DNA of 64,000 nt, from contig CANQXK010000006.1 of NCBI GenBank assembly GCA_947627715.1, positions 17,355-81,354 of the forward strand. Direction: 5' to 3'. This document shows, piece after piece, positions 33,433-47,819 of the stretch. The DNA comes from an uncultured Oscillospiraceae bacterium. GTDB lineage: Bacteria; Bacillota; Clostridia; Oscillospirales; Oscillospiraceae. Numbering within the stretch: the first letter of the stretch is position 1; the number at the start of each line of letters is the position of its first letter. The notes under the pieces are model-generated. The model searched no databases. It saw nothing but the letters and a program-made list of their open reading frames with translations, and had not been told where the DNA came from. The translations under genes and the position numbers were made by a program.

Positions 33433-33478
33433 TGGAGCTGGATGCGAGATTCGAACTCGCGACCTCATGATTACGAAT
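33433..33478 (-). repeat. attR: perfect 46-bp duplicate of the 3' part of tRNA-Thr (3' CCA end through the anticodon loop)
   Basis: TGGAGCTGGATGCGAGATTCGAACTCGCGACCTCATGATTACGAAT is identical to 47744-47789. Identity ends at 33479 (t) versus 47790 (c). Confidence 0.9.
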
Positions 33479-33808
33479 TGCAAACGCCATAAAAATTCAG
33501 GCATTTCTAAGGCTTTCGGCCCCTTTTCCCTCCAAAATCAGCAGCTCGTTCCTGCTATTCCCTCCACTGTTTCCACCCGCAAATTTCGTCCAGTGGGTCA
33601 ACTTGTGGGTCAGCCCACCTTCCGTGCGAAAAGTGGGCTAGCCGATTCGGGTTAGCTCGTGAAAATGGGGTAAAAGTCCGCCATTCGAGGGTTACATAGT
33701 AACTCTGAAAAGCAGAAAAGTCAAGTATTCAAAAACTGGACCGCTATAAGCAAAAAGAGCCTTTTCTCTCTGCACGCCATCAACCGAAACAGAGCTCCAA
33801 CTACGACC

Positions 33809-33891
33809 CCTCAAATTTTGCGGGGGACCCCCTGCATTTTTTGGGAGGGGAATAGTATTAACAAGACGTAGAGCAACAAGTATAAAGCCCT
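33809..33891. repeat. Direct repeat R1 (~84 bp) flanking the AT-rich cassette
   Basis: CCTCAAATTTTGCGGGGGACCCCCTGCATTTTTTGGGAGGGGAATAGTATTAACAAGACGTAGAGCAACAAGTATAAAGCCCT. It is about 88% identical to R2 by my manual alignment. Confidence 0.8.
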
Positions 33892-33995
33892 TCCAAAAGG
33901 TCTTCCGTGCACGCGGTTTCTCCGTTTTGCCAAAACGGTTTCACTCGACTTTTCTGCACCTCTGCGGTATTGTGTGTTGCCAAGGAGGAGTGAAA

Positions 33996-34259
33996 ATGGA
34001 GAATCTGATTAATGAACTCTATTACGGCAATCTCTGCCCAGTTGAACAGATGGGAGGGGGCACACCGAAGGAAAAAAAAATATTGAAGCGGATATACGAA
34101 AACGAGGAAAAACTGAGAGCGACTCTTGATGAACAAGAAAGAGCCATTCTCGACGCTATGAAAGATGACTGCCTCACCGTATCCAGCTCAATAGGCGAAA
34201 GACGCTTTTGCGAGGCGTTCAGTTTGGGAGCAAGGTTGATGGTCGAAATCCTCACATGA
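33996..34259 (+). CDS. Small helical protein of a family common on Clostridia mobile elements (ELYYGN... type; function unknown)
   Basis: MENLINELYYGNLCPVEQMGGGTPKEKKILKRIYENEEKLRATLDEQERAILDAMKDD...FSLGARLMVEIL. An AAGGAGGAG RBS lies 5 nt upstream of the ATG at 33996. The ORF-track start at 33927 is unsupported. Confidence 0.6.
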   Translation: MENLINELYYGNLCPVEQMGGGTPKEKKILKRIYENEEKLRATLDEQERAILDAMKDDCLTVSSSIGERRFCEAFSLGARLMVEILT

Positions 34260-34727
34260 GACCCTCAATAATTGCGGGAGTTCCCCACGAAAGGCAAGAT
34301 GCATGGTTGATTGTTTTCCGGCAAGGTAGTTATACCATAAGGGTCTCGAATCGTCAACGGTCTTAACGACACCGTAAGCACGCTGTTGGGCCTGTATGCG
34401 GTTTTAGGGCAAAGGGTAGAAATGTACACCTCCATGGTTGCAAAACGCCGTGTTGGGCGTTTGTGAGGGAAAAGCATTATCTTTTTCTGTTTTCATGAAT
34501 TAGCCCCCTTGTATTTTTAGTAATGTAGCTACCAAACCGTTACTACTATTATACCTATACTTGGAGGCTTAATTCCTCTCAATCTCCCTTTGAGCTTGCG
34601 TTAAGCTCGCCCATTTTGGCTTCGCTGAAGCCGTTCCCCTCCCCCGGTAGAACCGAGGGGCGTTGCATAAATGCATCAAACACATGGCACAGGGAGTAAA
34701 ACTCTCTACCCATAATTTAAAATCTAT

Positions 34728-45427: not shown

Positions 45428-46089
45428 CTGTACCCCATCCCCCATACCGTCTCGATGAACTCCCGCCCCGTGACCTCCAAGAGCTTATTTCGTATTTTGC
45501 GGATATGCTCCTTGATGACCCGGCTGTCTCCCTCGGCGTCCAGGCCCCAGATAAGCTCGTACATCCGCTCACGGTCAAAGACCTGGTTTTGGTTCATGGC
45601 GAGAAACTCGATGATCTCGTATTCCCGCCTGGAGAATCGAATCTCCTCGCCCTGCCACAACACTCTCCTGCCTGTGAGGTCCACGATCAGCCCATGGGAG
45701 GAGATGAGGCTTGCGCTTCTCCTCTGCCGCCGGTCCCGCCGCAGATGCGCCTCGATCCGCGCCGACAGCTCCGCGAGGCTGAAGGGCTTGGTGATGTAGT
45801 CGTCGCCCCCGGCCTGAAACCCCCGGACCTTGTCCTGTTCCGTGATCCGCGCCGTGAGGAAAAGGATAGGGCAGCTCACCGCGTCCCGGATGGCCCTGCA
45901 CAGCTCCAGCCCGTCCATTCCCGGCATATTGATGTCCAGGAGGATCATATCCGGTCCCTTCGATAGAAGCTCCAGGGCCTTCTCCGCGTTCCCCGCCGTC
46001 ATCGGGATGTACCCCTCCCGCTTTAAATGCTCCGCAACGATCTCCACCAGCATCTCCTCGTCATCGGCAATCAAAATCTTGTACGCCAT
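45415..46089 (-). CDS. OmpR-family response regulator
   Basis: The receiver reads MAYKILIADDEEML...ILLDINMPGMDG. The winged-helix C-terminus reads ...RREYEIIEFLAMNQNQVFDRERMYELIWG...VIKEHIRKIRNKL. A GAGGTGA RBS is present. A candidate promoter is TTGACT-17-TAACAT (46116-46144, minus strand). Confidence 0.9.
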   Translation of the reverse strand: MAYKILIADDEEMLVEIVAEHLKREGYIPMTAGNAEKALELLSKGPDMILLDINMPGMDGLELCRAIRDAVSCPILFLTARITEQDKVRGFQAGGDDYITKPFSLAELSARIEAHLRRDRRQRRSASLISSHGLIVDLTGRRVLWQGEEIRFSRREYEIIEFLAMNQNQVFDRERMYELIWGLDAEGDSRVIKEHIRKIRNKLLEVTGREFIETVWGMGYRWKK

Positions 46090-46362
46090 GCCGTCACCTC
46101 GCTATCATGACTATCATGTTAAAAACATACCGCAAAAAAGTCAAGAAAAAGTCAAAAACAAACTCTCCCGCTTGGGAGAGGCAAGCATCGCATTTGTCTG
46201 TACACCGGGCAAGCCCGGCGTCCGGCAAATGCTTTTCCGGGCAGAAGCCCGCACCCACTGAGAGTGAAAAGTTATCCGTTTGTACACAATTTTCCCCTGG
46301 CTATTTGGCGAGAAAGCTGGTATGTTGTGTGTTTGCCGAAGGGCGGAAAGGAGATACGTAGC

Positions 46363-47511
46363 ATGGCAAAACGGAGAGCCAACGGCGAGGGTAATATACG
46401 AAAAAGGCCAGACGGTCGATGGGAAGGAAGGTATATCGCAGGCCACGACGAGAACGGGAAAGCGATTCGGAAGAACGTGCTCGGCAGGACCCAAGCGGAG
46501 GTTAAGGAGAAGCTGAAGCGAGCCATTGGGGAGTGCGCGGAGGTAGACGTTGAACGAGCGGAGGAATACACGGTGGGAGCTTGGGTTAAGACCTGGTACG
46601 AAACCTACTCCAAGCCGCACGTCAGAGAGAGTACACAGAGGTTCTACGAGGACTACATCGAGCACCATGTGGTGCCCCGTATTGGCGGTATCAAGCTCAC
46701 CAAATTGACTGGCAGAGACATACAGAAGATGTACAACGACGTCAAGGCAAAGGGGCGCATCAGGAAAAAGGCAGACGGGGACACCAGTATGAGCGCAAGC
46801 TACGTCCGCGGCCTCCATATGATGCTGCACAACTGCCTTGGGCGGGCAGTAAAAGAGAGGCTCATTCTGCGAAACCCCACAGAGGACTGCATCGTGCCGA
46901 AGCTGGAAAAGAAGGAAATGCACATCCTCCACCCCGAAGACATCAGCGCCTACCTCAAAGAGGCGGACCGGCGGGGCGTGCTGGCGATGTTCTTCCTCGA
47001 ATTGACCATCGGTCTCCGAAAAGGTGAACTTGTCGCCCTTCTGTGGAGCGACCTCGATGAAACGTCAATTGCCCTGAACGTCTGCAAACAGGCCGTCAGG
47101 GTCAAAGGCGGAGGGGTGAAGGTCACACGTCCAAAAACTGAAACCTCCATCCGCAGAATCTCACTGTCCCAGGAAACGATAGACGTCCTCAAAGCGGAAC
47201 ATGAAAAGCACCCGGAAATCGAGATCATGTTCCCCTCCCCGGTAACGCTCGGCATGTACTACCCTGATTCCGTCACAGCCATCCACAACAAAATCCTCAA
47301 ATCCGCCGGGCTCCCACACATCCGTCTGCACGACCTCCGCCACACCTTCGCCACCTTGGCGCTGCAAAACGGCGTGGACGTGAAAACGGTCTCCTCCATC
47401 CTCGGCCACTACGACGCCGGCTTCACCCTCCGAACTTACACCCACGTCACAACAAAAATGCAGGAAGAAGCCGCAGCAACGATGGGAAAGTTGATAGGAG
47501 CGAATGTATGA
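46363..47511 (+). CDS. int: Tyrosine integrase of the tRNA-Thr island
   Basis: MAKRRANGEGNIRKRPDGRWEGRY... is a typical phage-integrase N-terminal arm-binding/SAM-like region. The catalytic region is ...LRKGEL...HDLRHTFATLALQNGVDVKTVSSILGHYDAGFTLRTYTH. A GGAAAGGAG RBS precedes the ATG at 46363. Confidence 0.9.
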   Translation: MAKRRANGEGNIRKRPDGRWEGRYIAGHDENGKAIRKNVLGRTQAEVKEKLKRAIGECAEVDVERAEEYTVGAWVKTWYETYSKPHVRESTQRFYEDYIEHHVVPRIGGIKLTKLTGRDIQKMYNDVKAKGRIRKKADGDTSMSASYVRGLHMMLHNCLGRAVKERLILRNPTEDCIVPKLEKKEMHILHPEDISAYLKEADRRGVLAMFFLELTIGLRKGELVALLWSDLDETSIALNVCKQAVRVKGGGVKVTRPKTETSIRRISLSQETIDVLKAEHEKHPEIEIMFPSPVTLGMYYPDSVTAIHNKILKSAGLPHIRLHDLRHTFATLALQNGVDVKTVSSILGHYDAGFTLRTYTHVTTKMQEEAAATMGKLIGANV

Positions 47512-47696
47512 GTAAAAACTACACAGCCATAACTAAAAAAGGCCGTGGGACGCAAAATCCCACGGCTTTGTGCTATCCTATCCTTTCCGCTCCGAAATCC
47601 CGTTGGTGCCAGAAGTGGGTCAACGGCAGGCTGAAATCTGTCGGAGGGAGGGGTGCTCGAGGGGGACCGTCAGGGTCCCCCTCGAATTTTAATAGT

Positions 47697-47750
47697 AGCT
47701 CCAAAAGAAAACGCACCAGTCCGCGGACTGGTGCGTTTTCTTTTGGAGCT
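47697..47750 (-). terminator. 26-bp perfect hairpin directly 3' of tRNA-Thr; its stem includes the last 7 nt of the tRNA
   Basis: AGCTCCAAAAGAAAACGCACCAGTCC-GC-GGACTGGTGCGTTTTCTTTTGGAGCT (47697-47722 pairs with 47725-47750). Confidence 0.6.
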
Positions 47751-47819
47751 GGATGCGAGATTCGAACTCGCGACCTCATGATTACGAATCAGGCGCTCTA
47801 CCGGCTGAGCTAATCCAGC
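47744..47819 (-). tRNA. tRNA-Thr: tRNA-Thr (anticodon CGU)
   Basis: The reverse strand reads GCTGGAT TA GCTC AGCCGGTA GAGC G CCTGA TTCGTAA TCATG AGGTC GCGAG TTCGAAT CTCGC ATCCAGC T CCA. It is 76 nt and forms a cloverleaf with one C-U mismatch in the anticodon stem. The CCA end is encoded. Confidence 0.85.

Follow-up and report, generated by a model that had tools for sequence, protein, structure and literature searches.

Is the 14.3-kb segment from 33433 to 47789 of the 64-kb window (the whole stretch of DNA that was analysed) an element inserted into a tRNA gene by an integrase, and, if so, is it recent and still able to leave? The first-pass annotation had proposed an integrative island in tRNA-Thr(CGU), bounded by a perfect 46-bp att repeat and recent or still excisable. 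The host is an uncultured rabbit-gut Oscillospiraceae bacterium, and the family of elements described below is spread across its genus. The region is organised as follows (strand and basis in each line; a dot marks features without strand).

26202–33432,., neighbouring mobile element, outside the island and abutting the distal att (domain matches, shared end motifs)
33433–33478, −, distal att, displaced copy of the 3′ 46 nt of tRNA-Thr(CGU) (exact identity to 47744–47789)
33479–34481, +, conserved left module: GTGGGTCA pair, promoter-like repeat, DUF6809 gene (76–87% identity to relatives)
34482–37086, −, AT-rich cassette, ~30% GC (composition)
34728–35513, −, radical-SAM-like ORF in the cassette (weak, sub-threshold Pfam match)
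35510–36214, −, 234-aa ORF in the cassette
36411–36770, −, small membrane ORF in the cassette (one weak PHROGs match of unknown function)
37087–37181, +, second ~95-bp promoter-like backbone repeat (86–90% identical to 33798–33891)
37202–38011, −, N-acetylmuramoyl-L-alanine amidase, CwlD-like, one N-terminal hydrophobic segment (Amidase_3, E 7e-54)
38012–39793, −, 593-aa membrane protein with ABC-2-like permease region (hydrophobic segments, sequence)
39790–40995, −, 401-aa ABC-2-type permease (weak ABC2_membrane_3 match, four hydrophobic segments)
40992–41867, −, ABC transporter ATPase, DrrA/GldA/lantibiotic-protection type (ABC_tran, E 9e-31)
41871–43997, −, 708-aa predicted lipoprotein, signal peptide ending LLSGC (sequence)
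44117–45445, −, HAMP/HisKA sensor kinase (domain matches)
45415–46089, −, OmpR-type regulator (domain matches)
46156–47633, +, right module: int upstream region, integrase gene, ~120-nt conserved arm (alignments, domains, motifs)
47634–47743,., variable terminator module, type T2 (palindrome, comparison with relatives)
47744–47819, −, intact tRNA-Thr(CGU), whose 3′ 46 nt (47744–47789) are the proximal att (ARAGORN, Rfam)

Boundaries, integrase and cargo

ARAGORN placed a single tRNA in the window, the tRNA-Thr(cgt) on the minus strand (Rfam score 68.7 bits), which is also the only tRNA-Thr(cgt) among the 48 tRNAs of the assembly. Direct reading of the sequence demonstrated that the two att copies are identical at 46 of 46 nt (TGGAGCTGGATGCGAGATTCGAACTCGCGACCTCATGATTACGAAT) and lie in the same orientation, with divergent sequence beyond both of them on either side. 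Read along the tRNA, the shared block starts at position 31, on the 5′ edge of its anticodon loop, and extends as far as the CCA end. The 46-mer occurs exactly twice in the 2.64-Mb assembly when up to three mismatches are allowed, both times at the island ends, and a chance origin of the duplication is negligible. The same 46-mer forms the boundary of every related element.

The 382-aa integrase ORF (46363–47511) is intact and matches Phage_integrase (PF00589) and Phage_int_SAM_3 (PF14659). Its motifs LRKGE (218), RPKTE (256), HDLRH (323), LGH (347) and TYTH (358), each kept in 44–47 of 47 homologues, are what we take to be the R-K-H-R-H-Y catalytic set. By sequence, the proteins of known structure nearest to it include 2kkp (NMR, 'Phage integrase' domain) and the 'Int protein' of 6emy/6emz/6en0. 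Thus, the exact tRNA 3′ duplication and the tyrosine integrase beside the intact tRNA, both reported in the first-pass annotation, were confirmed, and the repeat was not found at many tRNA-unrelated sites, a possibility it had raised. Alignments of the right module to related loci start at 46156–46267 and end near 47622, with a GTGGGTCA motif in the arm at 47615–47622. In the adjoining terminator module a perfect 27-nt palindrome (47697–47750) takes in the last 7 nt of the tRNA; this T2 type is shared with L059 only, other relatives carrying types T1 or Y.

At the opposite end, the left module resembles att-adjacent DNA in more than 30 related elements. Its paired GTGGGTCA motifs (33593–33600 and 33605–33612) recur at equal offsets in 18 of the 23 left modules, and each right arm has one. 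The first copy of the promoter-like repeat lies at 33798–33891 and is followed by the DUF6809 gene (33996–34259; PF20648, E 4e-21), encoding an all-helical protein of 87 aa with no known fold relative, which is the sole candidate partner or accessory factor for the integrase. The two copies of the ~95-bp repeat bracket DUF6809 and the AT-rich cassette. The island is thus a composite, with a duplicated ~95-bp segment of the backbone around DUF6809 and the cassette. The cassette DNA has no match in any related locus and is so far peculiar to this island; independent assemblies contain it as well, and we take this ~30%-GC segment to be foreign DNA. PADLOC and PHROGs returned nothing useful for its ORFs and Pfam only the sub-threshold radical SAM match.

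The remaining cargo was annotated correctly in the first pass as a two-component system, an ABC-2 exporter, a 708-aa lipoprotein and an amidase, and gene calls made independently on other assemblies agree with it (an amidase of 269 aa, permeases of 593 and 401 aa, an ATPase of 289 aa, a 708-aa protein, a kinase of 442 aa and a regulator of 224 aa). The amidase scored 145 bits against TIGR02883, under the family cutoff, as were the best NCBIfam matches of the ATPase (TIGR03522, TIGR01188, TIGR03740). In the 593-aa protein, which has no family match in Pfam or NCBIfam, a second lipobox-like motif comes after the permease region, and then a soluble C-terminal domain of ~230 aa; the 708-aa predicted lipoprotein has no match in Pfam, NCBIfam or PADLOC. 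The two-component pair (44117–46089) shows 73–82% DNA identity to cargo of L027/L064, L040, L057 and L090. By its domains, the cargo would comprise an ABC-2 exporter under two-component control, together with accessory lipoproteins and an amidase acting on the cell wall; it would most likely serve in envelope stress or in the export of, or immunity to, antimicrobial peptides, the domain matches lying under family cutoffs.

A genus-wide family and its target choice

Comparison with other species of the genus shows that the island belongs to a hitherto undescribed family of small integrase elements at tRNA-Thr genes. The family backbone consists of a ~1-kb left module (att, GTGGGTCA pair, DUF6809) and a ~1.5-kb right module (int, arm), which map on the window to 33430–34481 and 46156–47622 with the cargo slot between them. 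Relatives have a bare backbone of 2.7–3.5 kb or other cargo, often as 2–4 tandem units at the same tRNA; in L015, L016, L017, L019, L020, L037, L043 and L049, 2–4 att copies lie 2.7–13.7 kb apart. Integrases of ~90% or more amino acid identity are found beside the same tRNA and an Sm_multidrug_ex gene in other species of the genus, in which the content at this tRNA varies from no cargo to other cargo or several tandem units. In one genome (G014) the tRNA-Thr(CGU) next to this Sm_multidrug_ex gene is divergent in sequence, and no integrase was detected there. Altogether, the integrase is present in 18 of the 24 genomes that are at least 90% complete, with copies on many contigs within one genome. 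The island reading of 33433–47789 is supported by its anatomy and by the dozens of related elements with other cargo at the same site: we regard the segment as an integrase-mediated island in tRNA-Thr(CGU) with the duplicated 3′ half of the tRNA at its ends. The family appears to be a main source of gene-content variation in this uncultured rabbit-gut genus, and its position adjoining int gives the uncharacterised DUF6809 family a first functional context.

A sister lineage with integrases 93–96% identical is inserted at the same position of tRNA-Thr(UGU). Its elements have the 46-nt 3′ half of that tRNA at their ends, with the homologous cut nucleotide, and their attP additionally carries a whole tRNA-Tyr. 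The window integrase groups with the UGU lineage (96% identical to L031) despite its CGU site, and well-supported branches of the integrase tree force at least 2–5 changes of the CGU/UGU label, so that the clades are not pure. CGU and UGU integrases differ by 4–7%, and the anticodon loops of the target sites by one base. The choice between the two probably follows the tRNA segment carried in attP and not a large change of the integrase. The family offers a natural experiment in the retargeting of a tyrosine integrase between tRNA isoacceptors.

Age, present mobility and rival readings

The first-pass annotation had taken the perfect repeats to suggest a recent element. This was not borne out, as the displaced att copies of the 23 distinct elements examined are all near-perfect, although the integrase copies are old (dS ~1) and at the same time under strong constraint (dN/dS ~0.04, 0.03–0.06). 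The displaced att copies show 98.7% pairwise identity, compared with 70.5% for the next 46 nt. Perfect repeats are thus not a sign of recency, and maintained or regenerated recombination sites would be the better explanation; the near-perfect conservation of the displaced att over long divergence is a useful marker of continuing site-specific recombination. Integrase pairs from different genomes never exceeded 94.3% nucleotide identity, so that recent interspecies transfer is not documented.

Both junctions and the interior recur at 99.3–99.96% identity in contigs from other samples, and the island is therefore not an assembly artefact. Among contigs with this IS3 or integrase, all sites were occupied, and neither an excised circle nor an empty site nor an island-free variant was found. 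Short contigs break inside att. As the internal junction of a tandem array is identical to attP, contigs cannot separate the two.

One might regard the locus as an immobile, vertically inherited relic, its integrase and att kept by gene conversion from the tRNA gene or for a host-beneficial role, and its 14.3-kb unit no longer excising. Such a relic would agree with the occupied sites in all assemblies, with integrase copies that are all anciently diverged, with an integrase beside every tRNA-Thr(CGU) that carries this 46-mer and whose downstream side was assembled, and with the lack of a recognised excisionase. However, the low dN/dS, in genomes that have many redundant copies, points to selection for recombinase activity, att halves that are non-functional as tRNA are conserved while adjacent DNA is not, and the differences in cargo and unit number between species on one backbone require repeated integrations. 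We therefore consider a relic improbable.

Where the insert ends on the left is a separate matter. The DNA left of 33433 is another mobile element and not chromosome: it begins with AATAAGTGGTTAAAA and contains genes for a TauE-like protein and a large serine recombinase (29875–31719), a second copy of rplA, and an IS3 relic besides an intact IS3 (32110–33258). A ~180-bp module that includes a terminator hairpin forms its right end. Elements with these end motifs on both sides occur in L016, L050, L060 and on contig C9 of the same assembly, each placed precisely at the TGG (CCA) of an att or tRNA, that on C9 at tRNA-Tyr. As 26113–26201 is 91% identical to 47660–47747 with the same TGG end, the true insert might be the 21.5 kb between these two ~90-nt T2 copies (26202–47743), comprising the serine-recombinase/IS3 element and the island, with 26113–26201 as the native tRNA terminator. 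T2-like modules, though, also precede an AATAAG motif at unrelated places (C3, C9), so that the copy at 26113 is not necessarily native; relatives do not share the gene order to the left of 26113, and gene o24201 there has a second copy on C2. We hold this larger insert to be a serious possibility, at somewhat less than even chances.

The origin of the island might also lie in the fusion of two once-tandem elements, one with DUF6809 and the cassette and the other with amidase, ABC transporter, two-component system and int, by deletion of the internal int-att junction; this is compatible with a site-specific island. The ~95-bp repeats on both sides of DUF6809 and the cassette would be the scar, tandem arrays as a possible substrate are common, and in L064 (G019) a single repeat lies directly against a homologous amidase gene and DUF6809 was not detected, as if the second element stood alone; moreover, the assembly graph breaks within the cassette and coverage differs between its two sides. 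However, the same anatomy would result if the cassette had simply inserted downstream of DUF6809 and the repeat had been duplicated locally, and in L051 and L053 the repeat already flanks DUF6809 on either side although there is no cassette, so we entertain fusion only tentatively. Finally, the atypical T2 arm together with the UGU-clade integrase means that the present arrangement could have arisen by homologous recombination between elements instead of clean integration.

In our view 33433–47789 is very probably a site-specific integrative island, a member of the family shown above, with the integration, target choice and cargo proposed here and presumably with current excision. An integrase of the lambda/Tn916 type would recombine the attP of the element, carrying the 3′ 46 nt of the tRNA and the terminator, with the chromosomal tRNA-Thr(CGU), strand exchange presumably occurring at the anticodon loop. 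The element would supply a new 3′ half, leaving the tRNA intact and moving the original half to the far end. The GTGGGTCA pair of the left module may serve as arm-type sites, with the third copy in the int arm. New copies of the element enter the tRNA of an occupied site and so build up tandem arrays.

Comparison with known systems

Taken alone, the island is a genomic island of the ordinary, tRNA-targeted kind; an att repeat, an intact recombinase and variable content at the same tRNA were all found, as would be expected of a tyrosine-integrase island. Williams (2002) reportedly described an anticodon-loop sublocation class of tRNA-integrating elements. As in tRNA islands and IMEs with lambda/Tn916-type integrases, int points towards the intact tRNA that it adjoins, the tRNA segment from anticodon loop to CCA end forms the direct repeat, motifs are repeated in both arms, and the integrase has an N-terminal arm-binding-type region with SAM-like core-binding and catalytic domains. 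Unlike these, the island has a ~2.5-kb backbone with a DUF6809 gene instead of a recognisable excisionase, relaxase or oriT. Consistent with the earlier annotation, which had seen no excisionase or transfer gene, Pfam, NCBIfam and PHROGs revealed no excisionase, relaxase, mobilisation or replication gene among the island ORFs, and no oriT was recognised. The oriT and/or relaxase/mobilisation gene of an IME was thus not seen, although sequence alone cannot exclude an oriT. No ORF of the island has a phage structural domain in Pfam or NCBIfam. The PHROGs scan covered six ORFs (int, a small ORF ahead of it, DUF6809 and the three ORFs of the cassette) and matched the integrase; the small membrane ORF gave one weak match of unknown function. 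A prophage or phage satellite was rejected, there being no capsid, terminase, packaging or phage-interference gene in these results.

Like the site-specific accretions of streptococcal ICEs, IMEs and CIMEs, the family shows tandem arrays, chimeric internal att sites and common decayed members (PMC5704250). In streptococci, the integrases within a tandem are usually distantly related, or a partner is a CIME without an integrase, and conjugative helpers are needed (PMC5704250), whereas here up to 3–4 units per contig each carry their own closely related integrase, copies occur on many contigs of one genome, and the family has no known link to conjugation.

Tycheposons are defined by a lineage-specific recombinase with shared primase, helicase and excisionase hallmark genes (bioRxiv 10.1101/2020.12.28.424599); in the island, Pfam, NCBIfam and PHROGs revealed no primase/helicase or excisionase gene, and a tycheposon by hallmark genes was rejected. 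The present family also differs in its host, a gut Firmicute, and in target specificity: tycheposon integrases cluster by target tRNA, whereas here integrases 93–96% identical serve two tRNA-Thr isoacceptors in impure clades. We can suggest, with some reserve, an undescribed tycheposon-like cargo shuttle of gut Oscillospiraceae, whose ~2.5-kb backbone would stack at tRNA-Thr, whose attP would set the isoacceptor and in which DUF6809 may act as a new directionality or regulatory factor. Like the tycheposons of Prochlorococcus, the elements carry cargo, use a tyrosine recombinase at tRNA sites, leave partial tRNA copies and stand in tandem, and both form variable islands with niche-related cargo (bioRxiv 10.1101/2020.12.28.424599).

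The att duplication and the genes of the island

The single tRNA gene in the window, a tRNA-Thr(cgt) on the minus strand at 47744-47819, was identified by ARAGORN and also matched by Rfam with 68.7 bits. Its portion from 47744 to 47789, which in tRNA sense starts at position 31 (the 5' edge of the anticodon loop) and includes everything up to the CCA end, is repeated at 33433-33478 in the same orientation with 46 of 46 nt identical, and both flanks differ at once. Searching the whole assembly (2.64 Mb, 100 contigs, 99.6% complete) with up to three mismatches allowed revealed the 46-mer at these two places only. 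The perfect repeat of the tRNA 3' part described in the first-pass annotation was thus recovered exactly, at the two ends of the island rather than at many sites unrelated to tRNA genes, and the duplication is confirmed as far beyond chance.

Beside the intact tRNA, the ORF at 46363-47511, preceded by a GGAGG/AGGAG ribosome-binding region, encodes a protein of 382 aa with Phage_int_SAM_3 and Phage_integrase domains. Its motifs LRKGE-218, RPKTE-256, HDLRH-323, LGH-347 and TYTH-358 presumably constitute the R-K-H-R-H-Y catalytic set, and the closest solved structures by sequence include 'Int protein' (entries 6emy, 6emz and 6en0). These domains and motifs agree with the tyrosine integrase proposed earlier for this gene. 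The remaining genes are as follows.

Genes of the island besides the integrase
33996-34259, DUF6809 gene, 87 aa, assigned by a domain match
34482-37086, AT-rich stretch (~30% GC), one radical-SAM-like ORF (sub-threshold match) and two ORFs without an assigned family
Cargo, minus strand, OmpR-type regulator and HAMP/HisKA kinase
Cargo, minus strand, 708-aa lipoprotein, signal peptide with LLSGC end
Cargo, minus strand, ABC ATPase of the DrrA/GldA/lantibiotic-protection type
Cargo, minus strand, ABC-2 permease, 401 aa
Cargo, minus strand, permease with soluble C-terminal domain, 593 aa
Cargo, minus strand, CwlD-like amidase

Gene calls of independent assemblies yield the same products, in accordance with the cargo first listed. 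Domain and profile searches of the island genes gave no match to an excisionase, to a relaxase, or to replication or phage structural domains, which upholds the earlier remark that excisionase and transfer genes are not evident. The AT-rich cassette was considered as a known defence system and rejected, as it gave no PADLOC match.

DUF6809 is the sole candidate for an accessory factor, its role being a presumed one. In the backbone it lies upstream of int in the same direction, in the order of an xis-int pair, and in distant Oscillibacter relatives (integrases 54-57% identical) the DUF6809 frame stops just upstream of the integrase match. A classical winged-helix Xis was rejected, since the model (pLDDT 80) predicts a helical hairpin for which the fold search gave no PDB match. 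Furthermore, DUF6809 had no PHROG, NCBIfam or PADLOC match, and the family is not mentioned in the literature searched.

A 27-nt perfect palindrome at 47697-47750 includes the tRNA's final 7 nt, AGCTCCA, so that a terminator supplied by the element could compete with the tRNA acceptor stem in the primary transcript. The palindrome-bearing terminator module, T2, is rare in the family, occurring in 2 of 15 aligned arms (the window and locus L059). A structured RNA in the island arms was rejected, as the Rfam scan gave the tRNA alone above threshold; hairpins and a tmRNA scored below it, the latter because the att is tRNA-like.

The element family and its tRNA targets

The host's genus, an uncultured one of the Oscillospiraceae, is represented by rabbit-gut MAGs. 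In its other species, an integrase of about 90% amino acid identity or more has the same two neighbours as here, the tRNA and the Sm_multidrug_ex gene. A close integrase homologue is present in 22 of 38 genomes of the genus (18 of the 24 that are at least 90% complete), and one genome carries near-full-length copies (at least 90% identity) on nine contigs. Many contigs contain the 46-mer two to four times, spaced by 2.7 to 13.7 kb, and each interval between neighbouring 46-mers has its own DUF6809 and int.

DNA comparison delimited the backbone in the window to a left module (33430-34481) and a right module (46156-47622), with all DNA in between (34482-46155) representing cargo. Four other elements also contain the two-component system and the amidase (73-87% DNA identity), divergence is far greater in the transporter and lipoprotein centre, and the AT-rich cassette was found in this island alone among the related loci compared. 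In 18 of the 23 distinct left modules, two GTGGGTCA motifs are placed at distances of 161 and 173 nt from the start of the att, and each right arm has one, matching putative arm-type integrase sites.

A backbone segment of ~95 bp, in which a TTAACA-N17-TATAAA promoter-like motif was read, occurs twice in the island (33798-33891 and 37087-37181), flanking DUF6809 and the AT-rich cassette. At locus L064, there is one copy only, directly adjoining a homologous amidase gene, and DUF6809 was not detected. The duplicated segment reflects either the arrival of the cassette by insertion or a deletion that fused two tandem elements.

The integrases closest to that of the window (93-96% identical) seemed at first to sit at tRNA-Tyr. 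This sister lineage was rejected as tRNA-Tyr-targeting because the crossover lies in tRNA-Thr(UGU) and tRNA-Tyr is only carried within attP: the elements have the 46-nt 3' half of tRNA-Thr(UGU) at their ends, with the cut at the homologous nucleotide, and their attP also holds a 12-nt spacer and the entire downstream tRNA-Tyr. Two tRNA-Thr isoacceptors therefore serve the family as targets, at their anticodon loops TTCGTAA and TTTGTAA. CGU and UGU targets cluster in the integrase tree without forming pure groups; the window integrase, from a CGU site, falls in the UGU-associated clade, and one UGU-site integrase is nested among CGU-site copies (support 95/89). We infer that target choice resides in the tRNA segment carried by attP and that elements exchange modules with one another. 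A recombination-breakpoint scan inside the window int, using sliding-window identity, was saturated.

Family integrases 85-92% identical to the window's were also observed on contigs L053, L060/L061, L072 and L042, binned as Phascolarctobacterium, Acetatifactor, Bacilli and 'Clostridia', which might reflect transfer between families or, alternatively, wrong binning of contigs with multi-copy elements. L060 and L061, from one MAG, carry the same features at the same coordinates in the fetched stretch up to the int-proximal arm, beyond which L061 continues into a tRNA-Thr att and L060 into an AATAAG element end. This may represent a junction polymorphism at the population level.

The left surroundings and the assembly

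The DNA left of the distal att belongs to another mobile element. It begins with AATAAGTGGTTAAAA.TCCTATT immediately following a terminator plus TGG, and its right end is a ~180-bp module with a hairpin against the TGG of the att.

Neighbouring element
26202-33432, TauE-like gene, IS3 relic, second rplA copy, CcrB/XisF-like large serine recombinase, intact IS3

Elements in L016, L050 and L060 are flanked by both of these ends, and contig C9 of the same genome has one that borders directly on the CCA end of tRNA-Tyr. Left of the neighbouring element in the window, the stretch 26113-26201 matches at 91% the T2 module beside the intact tRNA and may be the native tRNA terminator. The motif TGG followed by AATAAGTGGTTAAAA.TCCTATT...CCTTGCGNCGCAAGG was observed seven times in the genome, each directly after a terminator hairpin.

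Sites of the AATAAGTGGTTAAAA left-end motif
Window, 26199-26260
C3, 57615 and 57747
C9, 75583 and 75728
C20, 11113
C28, 21280

At four of the five loci, the opposite strand carries serine-recombinase genes at a distance of 1-6 kb. The motif looks like the left end of a serine-recombinase element family whose insertion point is precisely the CCA end of a tRNA gene or att relic, and the mini units (~130-145 nt) of C3 and C9 resemble empty fusions of left and right ends. The second rplA (ribosomal protein L1; 28676-29644), within low-GC DNA of this element, has an N-terminal extension and shares 89% identity with the rplA of contig C25; its arrangement also occurs in the independent assemblies L108 and L124. 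Left of the mobile-element cluster, two giant minus-strand ORFs of 3616 and 3318 aa (1931-12781 and 13778-23734) have C-terminal regions whose homologues in relatives lie near att relics (L029, L030) and, in L016, next to the tRNA neighbourhood.

Contigs of other samples reproduced the interior and right junction of the island at 99.3-99.96% identity, and also the left junction, with serine recombinase, IS3, att, DUF6809 and radical-SAM-like ORF in order. In the same samples, left-junction contigs had 27-30x coverage versus 12-19x for right-part contigs (~1.6-2.2 times that of the cargo/right-junction contigs; L103 versus L109, L104 versus L111), and the contig ends meet at ~35535-35653 within the AT-rich cassette. 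This coverage step suggests a second genomic context or a strain variant for the left part.

Age, mobility and known systems

Integrase copies are separated by dS ~1 with dN/dS of 0.03-0.06, and nucleotide identity stays at or below 94.3% in all pairs. The family is accordingly an old one, with each copy under strong purifying selection. Recent interspecies transfer was rejected, as near-identical integrase pairs were not found. The displaced att halves, which have no tRNA function, are nevertheless 98.7% identical pairwise across 23 elements, whereas the adjoining 46 nt are 70.5% identical, which argues for recombination sites that would be maintained or repeatedly regenerated. Consequently, the perfect repeat carries no information on recency, and the part of its earlier reading that pointed to a recent element did not hold.

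No empty site was found in the genus: all genomes with the 46-mer and an assembled tRNA-downstream side have an integrase beside the tRNA. For the proposed comparison with relatives lacking the island, the only integrase-free site, that of G014 (L025), has a divergent tRNA sequence, and on its distal side it shows no synteny with the window. Look-ups in other samples by exact protein (int, radical-SAM-like ORF, Sm_multidrug_ex, IS3 transposase) likewise gave no empty site or other context, only the occupied arrangement or contigs breaking inside the att.

The unique 46-nt repeat, the integrase and a family at the same site support a standard tRNA-integrating tyrosine-integrase island in tRNA-Thr(CGU), as interpreted in the first-pass annotation. 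In behaviour, the family resembles the tycheposons (10.1101/2020.12.28.424599) and streptococcal site-specific accretion (PMC5704250). The replication, excisionase or mobilisation genes that mark those systems are missing from it, and its integrases are not cleanly split by target tRNA.
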